Assembly (NCBI GenBank): GCA_902785275.1
Contig: CACZYB010000007.1
Span: 1-49,502, forward strand
Direction: 5' to 3'
Origin: an uncultured Pseudomonadota bacterium
GTDB taxonomy: Bacteria > Pseudomonadota > Alphaproteobacteria > Rs-D84 > CACZYB01
Length of the DNA stretch: 49,502 nucleotides
Shown: positions 6,854 to 32,942 of the stretch, one piece after another
Layout: each line of letters opens with the position of its first letter
Position numbering within the stretch: the first letter of the stretch is position 1
Program-made: the position numbers and the translations under genes
Notes under the pieces: generated by a model
The model's database searches: none
Told to the model about the DNA's origin: nothing
The model's input: the letters and a program-made list of their open reading frames with translations, nothing else

Positions 6854-6930
6854 TGGTGGCGCCCCCCAGACTCGAACTGGGGACCTGCGGATTATGATTC
6901 CGTCGCTCTAACCAACTGAGCTAGGGCGCC
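6854..6930 (-). tRNA. tRNA-Met(CAT), most likely elongator
   Basis: GGCGCCC acceptor stem, D arm GCTC/GAGC, anticodon loop ATCATAA, TTCGAGT T loop, encoded CCA. G1-C72 is paired and there is no GGG/CCC anticodon stem, so not initiator. A27-C43 mismatch; Ile2 not formally excluded. Confidence 0.93.
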
Positions 6931-13451: not shown

Positions 13452-13607
13452 AACCTTCTCCCTTTTCTTTCTATAACTATATTTAATAGCATTGTTAAAT
13501 CTAAAAGTCCATAATGAAATTAAAAAAAATGAAAATATATTCTTTTTATTGCATTTTACTATATAATTACTGTAAAATAGAGCTATACGAAAGGAAGATG
13601 AGAAAAT

Positions 13608-14258
13608 ATGGATATAATTTTATCAGGTGCAAATGGCCGAATACAGGCAAGTTATTACAAGAATCCTAACCCAAAGGCTCCTATTGCCGTTGTGTTTCAT
13701 GATGTTCCAACAAACGGTGGAAACATGAATGAAAAGGTAAATTATACCATTTTTTATGCATTTTTACAAAAAGGTTTCTCTGTGATTCGCTTTAATTTCC
13801 CAGGTGTCGGAAATACCCAAGGTATATTCGAAGCTGGTGAACCAGAGCTTACTGATGCCTCAACCGTTGTTGATTGGATACAGGAACAAAACGAAGAAGC
13901 TACTGAATTTTGGCTTGCTGGTGTTGGCTTTGGTGCATGGGTTGCAATGCAACTTTTAATGCGAAGAATAGAAGTATCTGGCTATATTGCTGTTTCACCA
14001 TCACCTAAAAAGTATGATTTTGGATTCTTCAATCCTGCCCCATGTAGCGGTTTAATCATAGGTGCCGGCAATGATAACACCATCCCTGACGATTCGCTAA
14101 AAGGATTAATTAACTACATAAACAAACAAAACTTTGCTCAATCTTCATACAAGGTAATCTCTGGTGCCAATAAAAATTATGAGGGAAAATTAAAGGACTT
14201 GTTCACTTTAATTTGTACATACCTTGAAAAGAATGTAAAAAATAAGCAAGTTTTGTGA
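13608..14258 (+). CDS. Alpha/beta-hydrolase-fold protein (Atu1826-like), catalytic residues degenerate
   Basis: GGNMNEKV, RFNFPGVGNTQG, ELTDA..VDW, FGAWVAMQLLMRR, YDFGFFNPAPCSGLII match the conserved alphaproteobacterial family. Confidence 0.85.
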   Translation: MDIILSGANGRIQASYYKNPNPKAPIAVVFHDVPTNGGNMNEKVNYTIFYAFLQKGFSVIRFNFPGVGNTQGIFEAGEPELTDASTVVDWIQEQNEEATEFWLAGVGFGAWVAMQLLMRRIEVSGYIAVSPSPKKYDFGFFNPAPCSGLIIGAGNDNTIPDDSLKGLINYINKQNFAQSSYKVISGANKNYEGKLKDLFTLICTYLEKNVKNKQVL

Positions 14259-14266
14259 AATTTTTC

Positions 14267-14295
14267 TTTACAAATCAATCAAAAAAAAATATCAT
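14267..14295 (+). promoter_or_regulatory. Putative sigma70 promoter with A9 tract in the spacer
   Basis: TTTACA (14267-72)-17 nt-TATCAT (14290-95); A9 at 14281-14289. Confidence 0.55.
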
Positions 14296-14301
14296 ATAAG
14301 A

Positions 14302-14546
14302 AGTATATTACTTTTGTAGTGTACTTTTGAAAGGGTGTTGAATAAAACTACAATCTTTTCAAAAGGGAAAACTTTTAAAGCCATGAATTCAGAAGTATAG
14401 GCTTTCCCTATACGAATGCACTTCAAGACATTAAGGGTTTTTCGAACCGGTAAGGTTATGTATGGTTTCCTTACCACTCTGTTGAAGGATATTGATTCTC
14501 TTAACGGATTCGTAAAATCATATGAAACGAGGAGGGACAAAAAGCT
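14302..14546 (+). ncRNA. Candidate structured 5' leader / cis-regulatory RNA (no known family recognised)
   Basis: Stems 14324-35/14354-65, 14395-401/14407-13, 14449-55/14469-75, 14436-39/14445-48, 14421-26/14482-87 and 14383-90/14506-13. Confidence 0.5.
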
Positions 14547-14915
14547 ATGAAATTAAAGAAAATATTTCTGATTGCTTTATTCTTAAGCATAAGTGGCAAG
14601 GCCTATTCTGGTGTGACGACAGGGCAAGTCGAAGCCGTTCTAAGGAAATACTGCATTCCAAAACCAAACGAAACTGCATTTGAAGGATACAGTGGTCAAA
14701 CATGCCAAAGTATGGCACAGTCTGTGTACAGAAGAACTGACGGTTCATGTCTTTGTCATAATTCTGAACATCTTGTTTGGGATCCAACTATTCGTAAATG
14801 TAAACCAAAATGTCAACCAGGATATCATCCAAAGTTTGGTATTTCAAAATGCCCTGGCGGTACAGGAAAGAAAAACGTTAATGATGATTATCCAAACAAA
14901 GAATTTATAAAATAA
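14547..14915 (+). CDS. Small secreted Cys-rich protein (7 Cys)
   Basis: RBS GAGGAGG, signal peptide ending AYS, C-x2-G-Y module at the C-terminus. Confidence 0.85.
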   Translation: MKLKKIFLIALFLSISGKAYSGVTTGQVEAVLRKYCIPKPNETAFEGYSGQTCQSMAQSVYRRTDGSCLCHNSEHLVWDPTIRKCKPKCQPGYHPKFGISKCPGGTGKKNVNDDYPNKEFIK

Positions 14916-14927
14916 AAGGAGGACCTT

Positions 14928-16703
14928 ATGAAGCTAAGAAAATTAACAACTACAACAGGATTGATATTTACAATCACATCTCCTGCTCCACTTTTCGCAA
15001 CAGATAGCTATCTCTTCGTTTGCGAAGCATGTAAGGCAGGAACATATTCCGATGGTACAAATGATTGTATAAGTTGTGCTGCGGGAACTTACTCCCACGC
15101 AAGTTCAACAAGCTGTACGAATTGTCAAGAAGGTCATTCAACAGAAGGAAAAACAGGACAGGCTGAATGTAAACCATGTGCAGCTGGATACTATACAAAT
15201 AAAAAAGGTCAAAGTACATGTGCCCCTTGTTCTGCTGGAACATATGCAAAAGGAACAGGAAATACAAAATGTTTAAACTGCGGCCCTGGAACTTATTCTG
15301 CAAATAAAGGCGCTTCTAACTGCACAAATGTAAGTTCAGGTTATTGTGCAACAGGAAGTGCAAACTCATCACAAAAAGGTTGCACAAGTAGCACAAATCC
15401 TTCTTCTTATCCAGGAGTTGCTATATGCGACACAAAAACATGCGCAGCAACAAGCTGTAACGCAGGTTTTGGTTATAATTCTGGAATATGTAATCAATGT
15501 GGTAGTGGATATGCTTCCATAGGAGGAACAACATCATGTTATTACTGCTCAGGTGCAAAAAGTTATTCTGGTCAAGGTGCAAGCAGATGTTCTTCATGTT
15601 CTGCTGGTTATATTGCAAACTATAACCACTCAGGTTGCAATATTTGTAAAGCAAATACATACGATAATGGCTCATCATGTGTTCCATGCGGTGATTGGCT
15701 ACAATCAAGTGAAGGTTCAACAAGTTGCCACGGTCCTGTAAGAATTAGAAAAATTGAAGAGATATCTGGTAGCAGTAGAGCAATTGGACACATAGATCCT
15801 GGTTATTACGTTTTGGTACTTGGTGGTGGTAATGGTGGTTCTACAGATGGTAGAACTTCTGGTGAAGGTGCTAAATTAGCATACAGATTCTACATCGGTG
15901 ATACTAAAGGTGCAGATTATAAATTATACTCTGGTGCCCATGGAACTCACAGTGGTAATAAACATAATGGAGCCGGTGGTGGTGGTGGATCATGGGCTAT
16001 AATTGGAGGATCCGAATACATTGCTGGTGGTGGCGGTGGATCTCCTGGAGATTACGGATATTCTGAAGGTGGTACCGGTGGTGCTAAAGGTGCCGGCGGT
16101 GGTTCCGCATCTACTGTAAATGGAAAAAGTGCTCGAGCTGGTAGTAGCGGTGGTGATGCTGGAGCAATGTATTCTGGTGGAAAAGGAGGTTATGCTCATA
16201 TTGCCTGGACAGACTATGGCATATATATAAACTACTATGGTGAAACAACAGAAAAAGGTGGTGATGGTGAAGGTCCATCTGGTGGACAAGGAGGTCGTGA
16301 ACCAACATTTGTTAACCTATTGAGTAAACGTTCATCAAATAACACATACGGTGGACAAGGTGTTAGATTAGGTTACGATTGTGAAGGTCTTGTAAAAACA
16401 CAAAAAACAAGAGAAGTTTGCCTCTACTCTCAATATGGTTCATGTGTATCTAAAAGAACAGAAACATATTACGAAATAACTTCCAGACCTGAAAATTGTA
16501 AAGCTGCTAGCTCGATTTGTACTTCAAGAGGACAATATGGAGACTGTTTAGCTCAAGATACACTCTATTATGATATAGACGCATCTAATGGAAAGAACAG
16601 TATAAATGATGCACATACATACTCAAATCTCGCATCAGGAGATTTAGCAGCCGGAATTACCGGATGCACAAGTTGTGCTAAATTATATAAATACGAATAC
16701 TAA
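14928..16703 (+). CDS. CxxC-repeat (ephrin-receptor-like/VSP-like) plus glycine-rich domain protein, probably extracellular
   Basis: RBS AAGGAGGA; 11 CxxC in ~15-18 aa C-x2-C-x2-G-x-Y modules (15021-15728); PGYYVLVLGGGNGG-led Gly-rich domain; 37 Cys by hand count. Confidence 0.88.
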   Translation: MKLRKLTTTTGLIFTITSPAPLFATDSYLFVCEACKAGTYSDGTNDCISCAAGTYSHASSTSCTNCQEGHSTEGKTGQAECKPCAAGYYTNKKGQSTCAPCSAGTYAKGTGNTKCLNCGPGTYSANKGASNCTNVSSGYCATGSANSSQKGCTSSTNPSSYPGVAICDTKTCAATSCNAGFGYNSGICNQCGSGYASIGGTTSCYYCSGAKSYSGQGASRCSSCSAGYIANYNHSGCNICKANTYDNGSSCVPCGDWLQSSEGSTSCHGPVRIRKIEEISGSSRAIGHIDPGYYVLVLGGGNGGSTDGRTSGEGAKLAYRFYIGDTKGADYKLYSGAHGTHSGNKHNGAGGGGGSWAIIGGSEYIAGGGGGSPGDYGYSEGGTGGAKGAGGGSASTVNGKSARAGSSGGDAGAMYSGGKGGYAHIAWTDYGIYINYYGETTEKGGDGEGPSGGQGGREPTFVNLLSKRSSNNTYGGQGVRLGYDCEGLVKTQKTREVCLYSQYGSCVSKRTETYYEITSRPENCKAASSICTSRGQYGDCLAQDTLYYDIDASNGKNSINDAHTYSNLASGDLAAGITGCTSCAKLYKYEY

Positions 16704-20624: not shown

Positions 20625-22106
20625 ATGTTATCAAAAAAACATTTTCATATTTTATTTGGTGTAATAGGCTTTTCTATTCTCACCCACTCTACCCCAGCTC
20701 AGGCTATAATAAATCTTCCTCCACAGGATTATGTTCAAACTTTGCGTGCAACTGATTTTTATTCCAATGTTATAAAAAATAAATTTTTATCAACTCTTGC
20801 AAATGAATATAAATCTTATGCATTGTTTAAGGCAAATTTCACACCAGACTATGAAATGGCAAATTACTTTGCAACAAAGGCTATAAACGCCTATCACGGT
20901 GAAACAGTTCGTCCGGAAGATATTTACACAAAAAATTTACCTGCAAATCAACTTGTTGAAATAAGTAATTATTACGAAGATTTGCTTCATTTCCTTGACA
21001 CTGATTTGGTAAACAAATATCCACAACTTATGGCCGAAGCTCAGGCAAAATTTGATTGTTGGGTTGATAGTCTTTCTCGTGGTGCCAGTCAAAAGCAAGC
21101 TTTGACCTGTCAAAATCGTTTTATGAAGGCAAGAAAATATTTATTTGCAAAATTAAATGATGGTTGCGGTTGTGAAAAATCTAAAAAAACAAAACAAAAG
21201 AAACCATCTGTTCCAAAATATGATGGAAAGATTCTTTCTATTCCAAAGTGGCCTAATCTTCCTATTGTTTCGAACAATCCACCTATTCCTGTTATAAAAC
21301 ATACCGTTGTTCGTGAATTAACAGTAAGCAAAGAAATAAAAGAAAGCATCTCAAGAATTGAAAAATCAATAAATGATATCAATACAAGACTTTCTAATAA
21401 TCAAACTAAGGCTGAAATCGAAGATATAAAGAAACAAATCGAAGAATTAAAGCGCTTGCTTAAAAATTCATCACAGGATAATCTTTCTGAACTTCAAAAG
21501 AAGTTATCAGAACTTGAAGAAAAGCTTTCAAAAATATCTTGCTCTGATTCTGTTGCAAAACCTACTGAACCAGAACCAACTATTGAAGCTCCTACTCCTG
21601 AAGAAACAGAGGAGGAGGTAACCGAACCAGAAGAAGAAGTTACAGAGGAAGAAATTGAAGAAGAAGCTCCTGCTGAGGAGGAGGAACATCAAGATGAAGA
21701 ATACCTCCCAGAAGAAGAACCAGAATTTGAATCTGTTGATGAAGATGAATACCTTGAAATAGAAATAAAGGATGCTCCATCAACATTGCTACCTTATGAA
21801 ATATTTTTTAACTGGAACGACGCAACCGTTGATCCAAAGTTCAATGATGCAATAAAAGATATCGCCGAAAATGCACAAAATTCCGAAGAAATGATTATAA
21901 TAAAGGGCCACACTGATGCAAGTGGCACACCAGAATATAATCAAAAACTTTCGAAAAAACGCGCCGAAAATGTTGGAAAGATTATAATGTCATACGGTGT
22001 TCCAAAAGAAAGAATTATTCTTCAAGGTGTTGGAAGTACCGAACCAAAAGTTCAAACAAAAACTGGCGAAAAAAATGCTCAAAATCGTCGTGTCGTAATA
22101 AAGTAA
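20625..22106 (+). CDS. OmpA-family peptidoglycan-binding protein with coiled coil and acidic linker
   Basis: Signal peptide ending AQA; AQAKFDCWV N-domain; C-terminal GHTDASG..YNQKLSKKRA..NRRV. Confidence 0.9.
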   Translation: MLSKKHFHILFGVIGFSILTHSTPAQAIINLPPQDYVQTLRATDFYSNVIKNKFLSTLANEYKSYALFKANFTPDYEMANYFATKAINAYHGETVRPEDIYTKNLPANQLVEISNYYEDLLHFLDTDLVNKYPQLMAEAQAKFDCWVDSLSRGASQKQALTCQNRFMKARKYLFAKLNDGCGCEKSKKTKQKKPSVPKYDGKILSIPKWPNLPIVSNNPPIPVIKHTVVRELTVSKEIKESISRIEKSINDINTRLSNNQTKAEIEDIKKQIEELKRLLKNSSQDNLSELQKKLSELEEKLSKISCSDSVAKPTEPEPTIEAPTPEETEEEVTEPEEEVTEEEIEEEAPAEEEEHQDEEYLPEEEPEFESVDEDEYLEIEIKDAPSTLLPYEIFFNWNDATVDPKFNDAIKDIAENAQNSEEMIIIKGHTDASGTPEYNQKLSKKRAENVGKIIMSYGVPKERIILQGVGSTEPKVQTKTGEKNAQNRRVVIK

Positions 22107-26179: not shown

Positions 26180-27533
26180 TTTTTTTGATGATATAATTTC
26201 CGAAGTCACCCCTGCCCCAAAAACAAATACTTTGGGACCTTCCGAAATTCCACCAACACCACAGGTAGAAAAGGTTTTTAGTGTTGCCGAATTTTCTATG
26301 GTACTAAAAGAGATTTTAGAAGGTACCTTTAAAAAAATAAAAATTAAGGGTGAAATTCAGGGATTAAAAAAACATTCATCCGGTACCTACTATTTCGATT
26401 TAAAGGAAAGTTATGGCGGAAAAGATTACATTCTAAACTGCGTGCTTTGGAAATGGACAAAAATTGATGTAAAGTTAGAGGAAGGTTTAGAAGTAGTAAT
26501 TGGCGGAAAAATCACCGCATATACCGGCCGTTCATCATATCAAATTACAGTTGAAAGTGTCGAAGTTGCAGGTATAGGGGCCCTTTTAAAACTTATCGAG
26601 GAAAGAAAACAAAAGCTTTCTGCCGAAGGTTTGTTTGATGAAAAATATAAAAAGCCAATTCCTATGTTTCCAAAAACAATTGGTGTTGTTACTTCACCAA
26701 CCGGTGCAGTTATCCAAGATATTATCCACCGCATAACCGACCGTTGCCCAACACGAATTATCGTTTATCCTGTTGCTGTACAGGGCGAAGGTGCCGATAT
26801 CCAAATAACCGAAGCGATAAACAACTTTAATAAAATTCAAGGTGAAAATCGTCCGGACGTTATAATTGTTGCACGTGGTGGTGGAAGTGTTCAAGACCTT
26901 ATGCCATTTAACGAAGAAAATGTTGTGCGTGCAGTTTTCGCTTCCACAATTCCTGTGATTTCAGCCGTAGGGCACGAAACCGATACAACACTTATCGACT
27001 ATGTTTCTGATCTTCGTGCACCAACCCCAACCGGTGCCGCGGAAAAGGCTGTACCTGTACGTTCTGATTTAATAAGAAATATTAAGGAAAAAGAAAACTT
27101 CTTAACCAATACTATTTTCAGGATGTTCGAAACATTCAACCTTAAAATAAAAAGTTTTGCCTCCGCCATTAAAAATCCAATGCAATATATTGGCGATGCA
27201 ATGCAACGTTTGGATGATAAAAGTTCAAAACTCGACTTGCTTATTTCCAACAAAACAAACTCTCTTTCTGATAGAGTAAATTTTGCAGAAAAGATGCTCG
27301 AAAGTTACTCTTTTAAAAATGTTCTAAAGCGTGGTTATGCAATTGTTTGGAATGGAACAGAAACAATAAGTAGTAAAGATTATTTACAAAAATTATCATC
27401 CGCAACCGTTGAATTTGCAAATGGAAAGGTTGATGTTTTTACCTCTGTTCAACCACAAACAAAACCTATGAAAAAAGAAAAGAAGGAAGATAAAAAACAA
27501 GCCCCACAAAATTTGCAGGGCGACTTGTTTTAA
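26172..27533 (+). CDS. xseA: Exodeoxyribonuclease VII large subunit
   Basis: OB fold, IGVVTSPTGAVIQDI, VARGGGS, SAVGHETD, RAPTPTGAAE. Confidence 0.96.
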   Translation: MSDFFDDIISEVTPAPKTNTLGPSEIPPTPQVEKVFSVAEFSMVLKEILEGTFKKIKIKGEIQGLKKHSSGTYYFDLKESYGGKDYILNCVLWKWTKIDVKLEEGLEVVIGGKITAYTGRSSYQITVESVEVAGIGALLKLIEERKQKLSAEGLFDEKYKKPIPMFPKTIGVVTSPTGAVIQDIIHRITDRCPTRIIVYPVAVQGEGADIQITEAINNFNKIQGENRPDVIIVARGGGSVQDLMPFNEENVVRAVFASTIPVISAVGHETDTTLIDYVSDLRAPTPTGAAEKAVPVRSDLIRNIKEKENFLTNTIFRMFETFNLKIKSFASAIKNPMQYIGDAMQRLDDKSSKLDLLISNKTNSLSDRVNFAEKMLESYSFKNVLKRGYAIVWNGTETISSKDYLQKLSSATVEFANGKVDVFTSVQPQTKPMKKEKKEDKKQAPQNLQGDLF

Positions 27534-27733
27534 TCTCTACCAGATTTTATTTTAAAGCAAGTATTTCCTTCTATAAAACAACTTTGATTATCATTATTTT
27601 CTCCTACAGAAAACTTTGCTTTTATTTTAGAAGTTCCATCTAAAAACAACTTACGTTTTTTCTCTTCTTTTTCATATTTTTTTATATCTTTCTTTGTCAT
27701 ACGTAAAACAAAATCATTATCTTTCATCATCAA
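27530..27733 (-). CDS. Hypothetical basic protein, 67 aa
   Basis: RBS AAGGGAG; start overlaps the end of the upstream repeat-protein gene. Confidence 0.5.
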   Translation of the reverse strand: MMMKDNDFVLRMTKKDIKKYEKEEKKRKLFLDGTSKIKAKFSVGENNDNQSCFIEGNTCFKIKSGRD

Positions 27734-29714: not shown

Positions 29715-31223
29715 TTAAATTTTTCTTCTAAAATTAAGTGCCATAGAAATATCTTCCGGTAAAACTTTGTCACGGAACGACATATCCGCAACTGTCCTTG
29801 CCACACGCATAGTTTTATAATATGCACGAGCTGAAAGTTTCAATTTTTCCGCAGATTTTGTAAGAAGTGTTAAAGCTTCAGGTGACAAATTTGCACACTC
29901 CTCAATCTCACTTCCAGAAAGATGAGCGTTAAGTATTTCCACATCTCCAAAATATTTTTTAAGCCTTAAATTTTGAAATTCACGAGCCTTTATCACCCTT
30001 GCCTTCACAACTTCGGAACTTTCACTTGGTTTAAGCGAAGCAAGCTCCCACGGGTTAATATTTTCCACACCAACAGTCAAATCGATTCTATCATAAAGTG
30101 GGCCACTAATCCTGTTTTGATACTTTTGTGCACAAAGTGGAGCCATAGAACATTGACAGTCCGGCTCACCAAAATGCCCACACTTACAAGGATTCATCGC
30201 CGCCACCAGCTGGAACTTTGCCGGATAAGTAATATGTCCATTCGCACGGGCGACACTAACCACACCCGTTTCAAGTGGTTGACGCAAACTATCCAACGCT
30301 TGTGATGAAAACTCTGGTAATTCATCCAAAAATAAAATTCCGTTATGTGCCAAGGAAACCTCACCAGGTTTCGCATGAAGTCCACCACCAGTCAATGCTA
30401 CCTGAGACGCAGTATGGTGTGGAGAACGGAATGGACGCACAATAGAAAGTCCATTTTCTCCCAATTCCCCAGCAACAGATTTTATCGTAGAAATTTCTAA
30501 CGCCTCACGCGCAGTCATAGGCGGAAGTATGGTCGGAAGTCGTGATGCAAGCATAGACTTTCCAACACCCGGTGGACCAATCATAAGAAGATGATGACCA
30601 CCAACCGCAGCAATCTCCAACGCCATTCGAGCCATCTCCTGTCCCTTAATATCAGCCATATCCACAGAATATTTTTGCTCAAACCTTGGTGGTTCAGAAG
30701 AATTAGAAATAATCTGTGTCCCCTTAAAATGATTTATCAATTCAAGAAGATTTGCAGGACCAAGCACATCTTTATTTCCTGCCCACAAAGCCTCCGCCAC
30801 CTGTGGTTCAGGACAAATTATTCCAAGATTATTTGCAAGCGCAGACATAGATGTTGGCAAAATTCCATTTACTGACTTTATCACACCATCAAGCCCAAGT
30901 TCACCAAGTATCATATAGTTTTGAACTTCCTCCTCTGGTATAACATTAAGTGCAGTCAACATAGCAACCGCAATAGGCAAATCGAAATGGGATCCTTCCT
31001 TCACAACATCAGCCGGAGCAAGATTCACAATAATTCTTTTTGCAGGCAAAGCAAACCCCATAGAAGAAAATGCAGATTGTATACGTTCCTTCGCCTCACT
31101 TATAGCCTTATCCGGAAGCCCAACAATAGAAAACTTAGGTAGCCCCGCCGAAATCATAACCTCGACCGAAACTTTTATAACATCAATCCCACAAAACGCC
31201 GGTGTCCAAACCTTTGCTAACAT
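29715..31223 (-). CDS. comM: YifB/ComM Mg-chelatase-like AAA+ ATPase
   Basis: IVGLPDKAISEAKER, NLAPAD, GPPGVGKS, RPFRSPHH, FLDELPEF, AAMNPCKCG; start MLAKVW at 31223. Confidence 0.93.
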   Translation of the reverse strand: MLAKVWTPAFCGIDVIKVSVEVMISAGLPKFSIVGLPDKAISEAKERIQSAFSSMGFALPAKRIIVNLAPADVVKEGSHFDLPIAVAMLTALNVIPEEEVQNYMILGELGLDGVIKSVNGILPTSMSALANNLGIICPEPQVAEALWAGNKDVLGPANLLELINHFKGTQIISNSSEPPRFEQKYSVDMADIKGQEMARMALEIAAVGGHHLLMIGPPGVGKSMLASRLPTILPPMTAREALEISTIKSVAGELGENGLSIVRPFRSPHHTASQVALTGGGLHAKPGEVSLAHNGILFLDELPEFSSQALDSLRQPLETGVVSVARANGHITYPAKFQLVAAMNPCKCGHFGEPDCQCSMAPLCAQKYQNRISGPLYDRIDLTVGVENINPWELASLKPSESSEVVKARVIKAREFQNLRLKKYFGDVEILNAHLSGSEIEECANLSPEALTLLTKSAEKLKLSARAYYKTMRVARTVADMSFRDKVLPEDISMALNFRRKI

Positions 31224-31302
31224 AAAAAAACTCCCATTAAAAATTAAGAACAAATATAAAACATTTTTCAAATACAGTCAAGAATTTTTTCTTATTATAT
31301 TA

Positions 31303-32459: not shown

Positions 32460-32942
32460 TTATCTAACCTGATTAAAATTCTTTTCAATCACAGTCTGTA
32501 ACTTTGTCTTAACCTTTGGTGCATTCATAACACCACCAACAACCAAACCACCCAATATTGCTGAAAGTATATAATTACGAACAATACGACGATTAAATTT
32601 ACGAACCAAAGCATCCTTCTTTTTATCAGAAAATTTTGTCCTTAATTTTGATTGATAAGCCATTTTTAAAAGTATTTCTTGATCAAGTAATCCAAGCTGA
32701 CTTATCTTATACTTTGGTAAAAATCTCTCCATTTTTTTAGGTTTTAAACATACAGTATCATTTTCACTAAAAACTGTAGCATCCATACGCTTTGATTTAC
32801 CAGAATTAGAATTTTTAAATCCGCTTAAAATTGCATCAACTTCTTTCTTTGTTAAAGGACGATCTTCATCATTAAGAATTTGGTTATCTTCAAAAACTTT
32901 CTTCCTTTTTTCAACATATTCTTTTCCTTTTTGGGTAATCAT
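32460..32942 (-). CDS. Hypothetical basic protein with one C-terminal hydrophobic segment
   Basis: RBS GGAG, 15 nt downstream of nrdR. Confidence 0.7.
   Translation of the reverse strand: MITQKGKEYVEKRKKVFEDNQILNDEDRPLTKKEVDAILSGFKNSNSGKSKRMDATVFSENDTVCLKPKKMERFLPKYKISQLGLLDQEILLKMAYQSKLRTKFSDKKKDALVRKFNRRIVRNYILSAILGGLVVGGVMNAPKVKTKLQTVIEKNFNQVR

Follow-up and report, generated by a model that had tools for sequence, protein, structure and literature searches.

The window analysed here is a stretch of 49,502 nucleotides and corresponds to contig C7 of the source genome (G000), which counts 1.05 Mb in 18 contigs, has about 31% G+C and is 95.7% complete. Within it, an alpha/beta-hydrolase gene (13608-14258) and the gene of a 122-aa protein are separated by a gap of 288 nt, which contains the structured leader described in this work (14302-14546). 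A promoter-like site occurs immediately 3' of the hydrolase stop codon and ends 7 nt upstream of the fold, thus implying a transcript start near 14302. Since no second promoter-like site was found between 14355 and the gene at 14547, this gene needs read-through from the upstream site. The features of the locus are collected in Table 1.

Table 1. Features at and around the leader, in positions of the window.
Feature	Position	Strand	Description
Promoter-like site	14267-14295	+	TTTACA, 17 nt, TATCAT; 10 of 12 positions match
5'-terminal hairpin P1	14304-14323	+	8 pairs (14304-11/14316-23) in the MFE fold, U-rich loop
Stretch under 100%-identical RNA-library contigs	14321-14539		Contigs at 14321-14538, 14342-14539 and 14326-14534
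Hairpin 2	14324-14365	+	Stem of 12 bp (14324-35/14354-65), two of its pairs being G-U
Rod-like domain	14366-14443	+	13-bp long-range helix 14366-78/14431-43 around internal loops and hairpin 14395-401/14407-13
Hairpin GGTAAGG/CCTTACC	14449-14475	+	MFE fold, stem 14449-55/14469-75
Two 3' hairpins	14478-14508 and 14509-14526	+	MFE fold
Shine-Dalgarno-like GGAGGG	14531-14536	+	Unpaired in the MFE fold; also before the ATG in G012 and G003
Downstream gene	14547-14915	+	122 aa, signal-peptide-like N-terminus, Cys-rich; multi-copy protein family
Second gene, presumed same unit	14928-16703	+	591-aa Cys-rich repeat protein (Ephrin_rec_like)

The protein encoded directly downstream of the leader belongs to a fast-diverging family with 35 matches in 12 of 41 genomes. 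Three copies occur in the source genome, the two paralogues being located at C15:1007-1333 and C5:71531-71851, and up to seven in the related genome G003. Searches in Pfam and the ESM Atlas returned no family for it.

Folding of positions 14302-14546 on the + strand yielded -66 kcal/mol, compared with -48.2 +/- 4.1 in 200 dinucleotide shuffles (z -4.35), none of which folded equally well, while the - strand returned a z of -1.70 with 10 of the 200 shuffles reaching the same energy. These data confirmed the strand-specific, multi-stem RNA-like fold that had been proposed from the letters of the stretch in an earlier, sequence-only reading. The source genome has 98 intergenic gaps of at least 245 nt, 26 of which were sampled to give a background of 52 strand-windows (mean z -1.24, sd 1.88); the value of the leader was the most extreme of the sample. 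As a separate observation, two intergenic stretches elsewhere in the genome, both on the - strand, gave z values of about -6.0 (C9, ~27480-27724) and -5.6 (C2, ~32570-32814) with 40 shuffles.

We read the MFE fold as a series of hairpins, whose stems of 12, 13 and 7 bp depart from Watson-Crick pairing by G-U pairs alone. The six nested stems listed in the sequence-only reading are all found in the sequence where they had been placed, and three of them are retained in the MFE fold, namely the stem of hairpin 2, the hairpin enclosed in the rod-like domain and GGTAAGG/CCTTACC; the GGTT/AACC, CTTCAA/TTGAAG and ATGAATTC/GGATTCGT pairings are absent from it. Conversely, P1 and the 13-bp long-range helix belong to the MFE fold but had not been named in that reading. 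Two further pairings of 7 nt that cross these stems (TTGTAGT/ACTACAA and TTAAGGG/CTCTTAA) had been put forward as pseudoknots or switchable folds. Complementary 7-mers, counting Watson-Crick and G-U pairs, number 75 in the stretch and 58 +/- 13 in shuffles, 11 of 100 of which reach 75. As 7-mer complementarity is at chance level, the pseudoknot part of the proposal was left unconfirmed. The hairpin at 14449-75, compared by eye, resembles hairpins with a G-rich and a C-rich arm located upstream of the ribosome-binding sites of the paralogues.

The Rfam searches agreed with the suggestion that the leader is novel. At the gathering score, a tRNA at 6857-6930 was the only RNA found over the whole window, and the search of 14200-14650 at E<=10 returned chance-level eukaryotic matches alone, the best with an E-value of 1.7. 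In the same genome, RNase P RNA was located at C8:16575-16867. A 301-nt stretch comprising the leader was unique in the source genome, short-word blastn giving chance-level matches of 14-24 nt, and a repeat or MITE was discarded. An invertible DNA segment was also dropped, because the pairings depend on G-U and good folding is confined to the + strand. The same applied to a hidden open reading frame: the antisense frame at 14292-14540 has nothing in common with the antisense frame of G003, and neither this frame nor a small sense frame at 14416-14550 reached a Pfam threshold.

The occurrence of the leader as RNA was investigated in sequencing runs using positions 13600-15200 as query. Three metatranscriptome runs, all from one study, each contained one contig identical to the leader with a depth of 2.9-4, and one of the three runs held a second contig at 15161-15200, on the edge of the queried stretch. 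It is suggestive that, within a query of 1601 nt, all three leader contigs lie on one stretch of 220 nt; their right ends are at most 5 nt apart and upstream of the ATG. Contigs of this type carry no strand, RNA ends or level, and RNA libraries can contain DNA; they support the existence of the leader as RNA and nothing further. A further run (X3), guessed to be DNA, contained two 151-nt pieces (14295-14445 and 14443-14593) and is uninformative on RNA.

These contigs raised the question whether the region gives rise to a stable small RNA of its own, some 220-240 nt in length, which is either processed or stops short of the coding region and acts independently. The closely spaced contig ends upstream of the ATG, the leader's own promoter and its compact hairpins would fit such an RNA. 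No contig covers the hydrolase gene or positions 14547-15160, and we considered whether this proved the RNA to be discrete or to end prematurely. The argument was dropped, since contigs lose rare sequence and the three runs come from one study, so that missing flank cover carries no weight. Moreover, contig ends are not RNA ends, the stretch 13500-15200 is devoid of terminator-like sites on both strands and the gene depends on read-through from the promoter-like site. At two orthologous metagenome loci (L044 and L045), the promoter at this position leads straight to the gene. The search for partner proteins in the source genome, at its completeness of 95.7%, returned no match for Hfq (PF17209) and none above the cut-off for CsrA (PF02599), whose best score was 17.7 bits (cut-off 27) inside a 705-aa frame. 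On this basis, an independent small RNA appears quite improbable. The lack of terminator-like sites also speaks against the attenuator suggested earlier, while the long structured leader on the + strand, starting from a promoter-like site about 250 nt upstream of the gene, was upheld.

Leader DNA was then compared with 40 related genomes, none of which gave a match. The arrangement of the hydrolase beside the Cys-rich gene is kept only in G012 and G003 among the 13 other species of the genus; a metagenome contig (L043) represents a near-identical strain of G003. In both species, as in the source genome, a CTTTACAA...TATAAT-like block follows the hydrolase stop codon, and a hairpin with a U-rich loop occupies the P1 position, with stem letters that differ from those of the source genome. 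The G012 leader spans about 430-440 nt (z -4.63) and that of G003 about 160-170 nt (z -3.56), while in L044 and L045 the gene starts only about 45 nt after the promoter. Leader length at this locus is therefore about 45 nt in L044/L045, 170 nt in G003, 245 nt in the source genome and 440 nt in G012.

A three-way alignment of the source genome, G012 and G003 retained the promoter and scattered columns alone, and little aligned beyond the first hairpin. Pairwise, the head of our leader aligned with that of G012 with a score of 45 against 28 +/- 4 in shuffles (0 of 300 as high), and with 25 against 18 +/- 3 once the promoter was removed (7 of 300). The tail, with the 5' part of the rod-like domain, aligned with the module following the core of the G012 leader with a score of 39 against 27 +/- 5 (5 of 300). 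Alignments between the source genome and G003 were not significant, 33 and 190 of 300 shuffles scoring as high. Both the range of lengths and the scant alignment past the promoter and first hairpin indicate that the leader is not conserved in the manner of a ligand-binding aptamer.

The upstream regions of Cys-rich paralogues in other species were found to have conserved blocks in common with the G012 leader. These regions define a family of multi-copy structured leaders of about 200-230 nt, located mostly upstream of genes for secreted Cys-rich proteins. From 5' to 3', its members consist of a promoter, P1, a short linker, P2, a conserved linker and P3 with a conserved 8-nt loop, followed by a variable hairpin, by P5 with its C-run and G-run, and by a junction domain comprising Pa (G-run/C-run), Pb, Pc (often with a GAAA or UUCG loop) and Pd. 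Covariance models were built for the junction domain (R1 and then R2) and for the 5' domain (R3). The promoter and P1 were read by eye upstream of 36 model matches, 30 of which served to model P1.

In the alignment of the 36 matches, which is fitted to the model, 95.7% of the cells are paired compared with 39-51% when the partner is slid. Changes on both sides occur in 20 of 26 pairs (128 cells), and 0 of 500 shuffles reach any of the measures. Covariation is strongest in Pb (8 of 8 pairs) and Pc (4 of 5), while Pa is nearly invariant and Pd weaker. In addition, the segment after P3 pairs in a copy-specific manner with the Pd loop: across the 36 members, the duplex energy is -11.2 kcal/mol within a copy and -4.3 kcal/mol between copies, a difference as extreme as which was seen in 0 of 2000 permutations. 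The copy-specific helix indicates that the 5' and junction domains form one fold. In the MFE folds of five full members, the long-range helix and P5 form instead of Pa and Pd, from which we infer that P5 plus the long-range helix and Pa plus Pd may represent two competing conformations. The switchable folds proposed in the sequence-only reading may thus occur in the parent family, in the form of mutually exclusive pairings, with descent indicated by synteny; in the leader itself that proposal was not supported, the crossing pairings being at chance level.

The 3' side of the family domain is variable. Some copies continue straight into an intrinsic terminator, and in others there are either two hairpins and then a ribosome-binding site, or long tails with G-arm/C-arm hairpins. 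By our reading, at least 23 of the 36 model matches lie upstream of Cys-rich secreted protein genes, and most of the remaining ones precede other proteins with a signal-peptide-like start. A simple scan flagged P5 together with the U-rich Pb strand as terminator-like in two members (L063:1492-1507 and L079:1576-1596), which could be an internal stop site inside the leader. Furthermore, a small open reading frame of 33-36 codons, which has a good ribosome-binding site, is conserved in two G009 copies (L030 and L039), where it separates the junction domain from the hairpin module that follows, and a different small frame of about 19 codons was observed in L026; these may encode leader peptides within some family members.

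The distribution of the family was assessed with the same models. With R2 at E<=0.001, about 900 matches were obtained, spread over 126 of 151 sampled genomes of the order at 1-29 copies per genome, and R1 had matches in 11 of the 13 other species of the genus, at 2-14 copies per species. Copy numbers range from 2 to 15 in the other species of the genus that have the family, with 6-7 copies in the species nearest to the source genome. Searches of three member stretches against Rfam returned no family at E<0.1, and a full-text literature search, at the level of titles and the beginnings of abstracts, retrieved no description of the family. The members of the order Rs-D84 are described as gut-dwelling, with genomes that do not exceed about 1 Mb (PMC12306168), and the text of that article contains 0 occurrences of the word 'RNA'.

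No R2 match at E<=0.001 was obtained in the source genome, nor in G006 and G007. Given the 6-7 copies of its nearest relatives, this result points to a recent collapse of the family in this lineage. The only recognisable member left in the source genome is located on contig C5 (~31080-31270, - strand; L050:1555-1782) and scored 24 bits with R3, with an E-value of 0.006, or 0.06 genome-wide. It is a short form composed of a promoter-like site, P1-P3, the junction domain and an intrinsic terminator (8-bp stem and six T). The gene that follows has a signal-peptide-like start and lies outside the Cys-rich family, while the orthologous locus of G011 has a Cys-rich gene. Two other hits were discarded: an R2 match at C4:48020-48084 (22.6 bits), judged to be due to chance and lacking a 5' domain, and an R3 match within the window at 20966-21031 on the - strand (14.3 bits, E 1.3), which is probably a chance hit and includes several non-standard pairs.

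The relationship between the leader and this family was evaluated by applying the models to the locus and its orthologues. The G012 leader is a full member, with 88.6 bits for R1 and 44.5 bits for R3, and was included in both seeds, whereas the G003 leader showed a weak 5' domain (R3 14.1 bits, E 1.6) in which all pairs are standard. In our leader the junction domain (Pa, Pb, Pc, Pd) is missing, R1 giving no match in the whole window at E<=1. R3 with default filters gave none on the leader at E<=10. With the filters turned off over 14150-14700, the best R3 match amounted to 8.2 bits and skipped the P2/P3 part of the model, and the best R2 match to 6.7 bits, compared with 23-94 bits for true members. 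Hairpin 2 occupies the position of P2/P3 and the core of the family and has no counterpart in R3 or R2. As P3 and Pd are absent, the long-range helix of the family cannot be placed, and the 13-bp long-range helix of the rod-like domain is a different one.

Two features of the family were found at the locus, namely the upstream promoter with P1 and a downstream gene of the Cys-rich secreted family. By these tests, the leader is a probable descendant of the family and not a member. The riboswitch proposed in the sequence-only reading is not supported for this leader, given that 0 of 40 relatives match at the DNA level, the orthologous leaders range from 45 to 440 nt and both family domains are absent.

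Taken together, these results led us to regard the stretch 14302-14546 as a structured 5' UTR that descended from the leader family without its core and has presumably lost the sensing function, a reading to which we assign a probability of roughly 0.55. Transcription would proceed from the promoter-like site into the operon of the small secreted Cys-rich protein. Descent from the leader family of the order, as suggested by synteny and modest similarity, would have been accompanied by the loss of P2/P3, of the long-range helix and of the junction domain, with the 5'-terminal hairpin and later hairpins being retained. Sensing would no longer be performed, and the unpaired ribosome-binding site might leave translation constitutively open. 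We purely infer a stabiliser role for the leader, in which the 5'-terminal hairpin and the compact stems would protect the 5' part of the transcript, which might then persist as RNA. Some of the data are less easily accommodated: the homology of the tail with G012 is modest (5 of 300 shuffles), the comparison with G003 is not significant, and a lineage-specific switch would escape models R1-R3. In addition, long and nearly perfect stems and the strongest fold of the sample fit a selected function better than passive decay.

The last point bears directly on the view that the leader is neutral debris, transcribed because of its position, carrying inherited hairpins and having no role of its own. 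The collapse of the family to one recognisable member (C5, R3 24 bits), the spread of leader lengths at the locus (45-440 nt) and the lack of both domains are what such decay would be expected to leave, but stems of 12, 13 and 7 bp and the top z of the sample are not expected to survive drift for long at 31% G+C. The quality of the stems therefore disfavours pure debris, which we consider rather unlikely, and makes a lineage-specific function possible, so that our confidence in the preferred reading is only moderate.

Such a function could in principle be that of a live cis-regulatory switch (a riboswitch, a protein-dependent attenuator or a thermosensor), in which a lineage-specific fold replaced the family core. 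The very strong strand-specific folding is in line with this idea, as are the alternative pairings and varied expression platforms of the ancestral family and the occurrence of RNA-library contigs on the leader. However, the fold is found in no relative (0 of 40 by DNA), and the orthologues are dissimilar in both length and sequence. Terminator-like sites are lacking, the MFE fold leaves the ribosome-binding site free, the crossing pairings do not exceed chance and neither family model recognises the leader. A live switch is thus an unlikely account of the locus.

A bolder version assumes that an RNA of about 230 nt (14302 to ~14540) is the live successor of the family, i.e. its relay half freed of the sensing core and accumulating as a discrete, abundant RNA. 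We regard this as decidedly doubtful. In that event, the RNA would fix the expression state of the Cys-rich operon or act in trans, its targets being the remaining family leader or leaders and the factor reading them, and nature would have dissected, at this locus, a new RNA switch that serves surface-protein genes across the order.

Under the preferred reading of a decayed but structured 5' UTR, the finding taken alone is a lineage-specific leader of modest interest, and its value resides in the context that it opened. If the source genome belongs to the order described in PMC12306168, as its lineage would have it, the apparent dependence on partners of these bacteria also applies to it, and secreted Cys-rich proteins would be a likely interface of such organisms with other cells. 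The source genome, with the family down to one intact copy and one copy without core, marks the parts that are dispensable for transcription and for the persistence of the RNA, the RNA-library evidence covering the copy without core and no intact family member.

Finally, we compared the leader with known RNA systems. 6S RNA is usually rod-shaped, whereas the MFE fold obtained here is a chain of hairpins; RF00013 gave no match in the whole source genome at E<=1, nor was it among the matches at E<=10 on 14200-14650, and this identity was discarded. GGA/GGG motifs suggest a CsrA-type sponge. Many of them occur in the leader, but neither a CsrA gene nor an Hfq gene was found, and a sponge of the CsrB/RsmZ type was also rejected. 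The sRNA-Xcc1 model (RF02221) matched the C5 member weakly within its junction domain, at 16.9 bits (E 2.4) against a cut-off of 53. The same model gave none on the full member L053 (E<=10), on L003 and L004 (E<=1) or on the leader, and a relationship with sRNA-Xcc1 is not supported.

The parent family can be likened to three-strand attenuators and terminating riboswitches, such as the PyrR-binding pyr leaders (RF00515), in that it likewise has competing helices and some of its copies end in an intrinsic terminator. The PyrR model on the C5 member gave 23.2 bits (E 0.38), far below the cut-off of 54. Unlike PyrR leaders, our leader has no terminator and no Rfam match better than E 1.7. Another known group is that of mRNA-stabilising 5' UTRs with a 5'-terminal stem-loop, for instance the E. 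coli ompA leader. The leader described here is unrelated to it in sequence, has roughly double its length and is much more highly structured. Like the ompA leader, it is a long leader preceding the gene of an exported envelope or surface protein, has a hairpin a few nt from its presumed 5' end and leaves the ribosome-binding site free.
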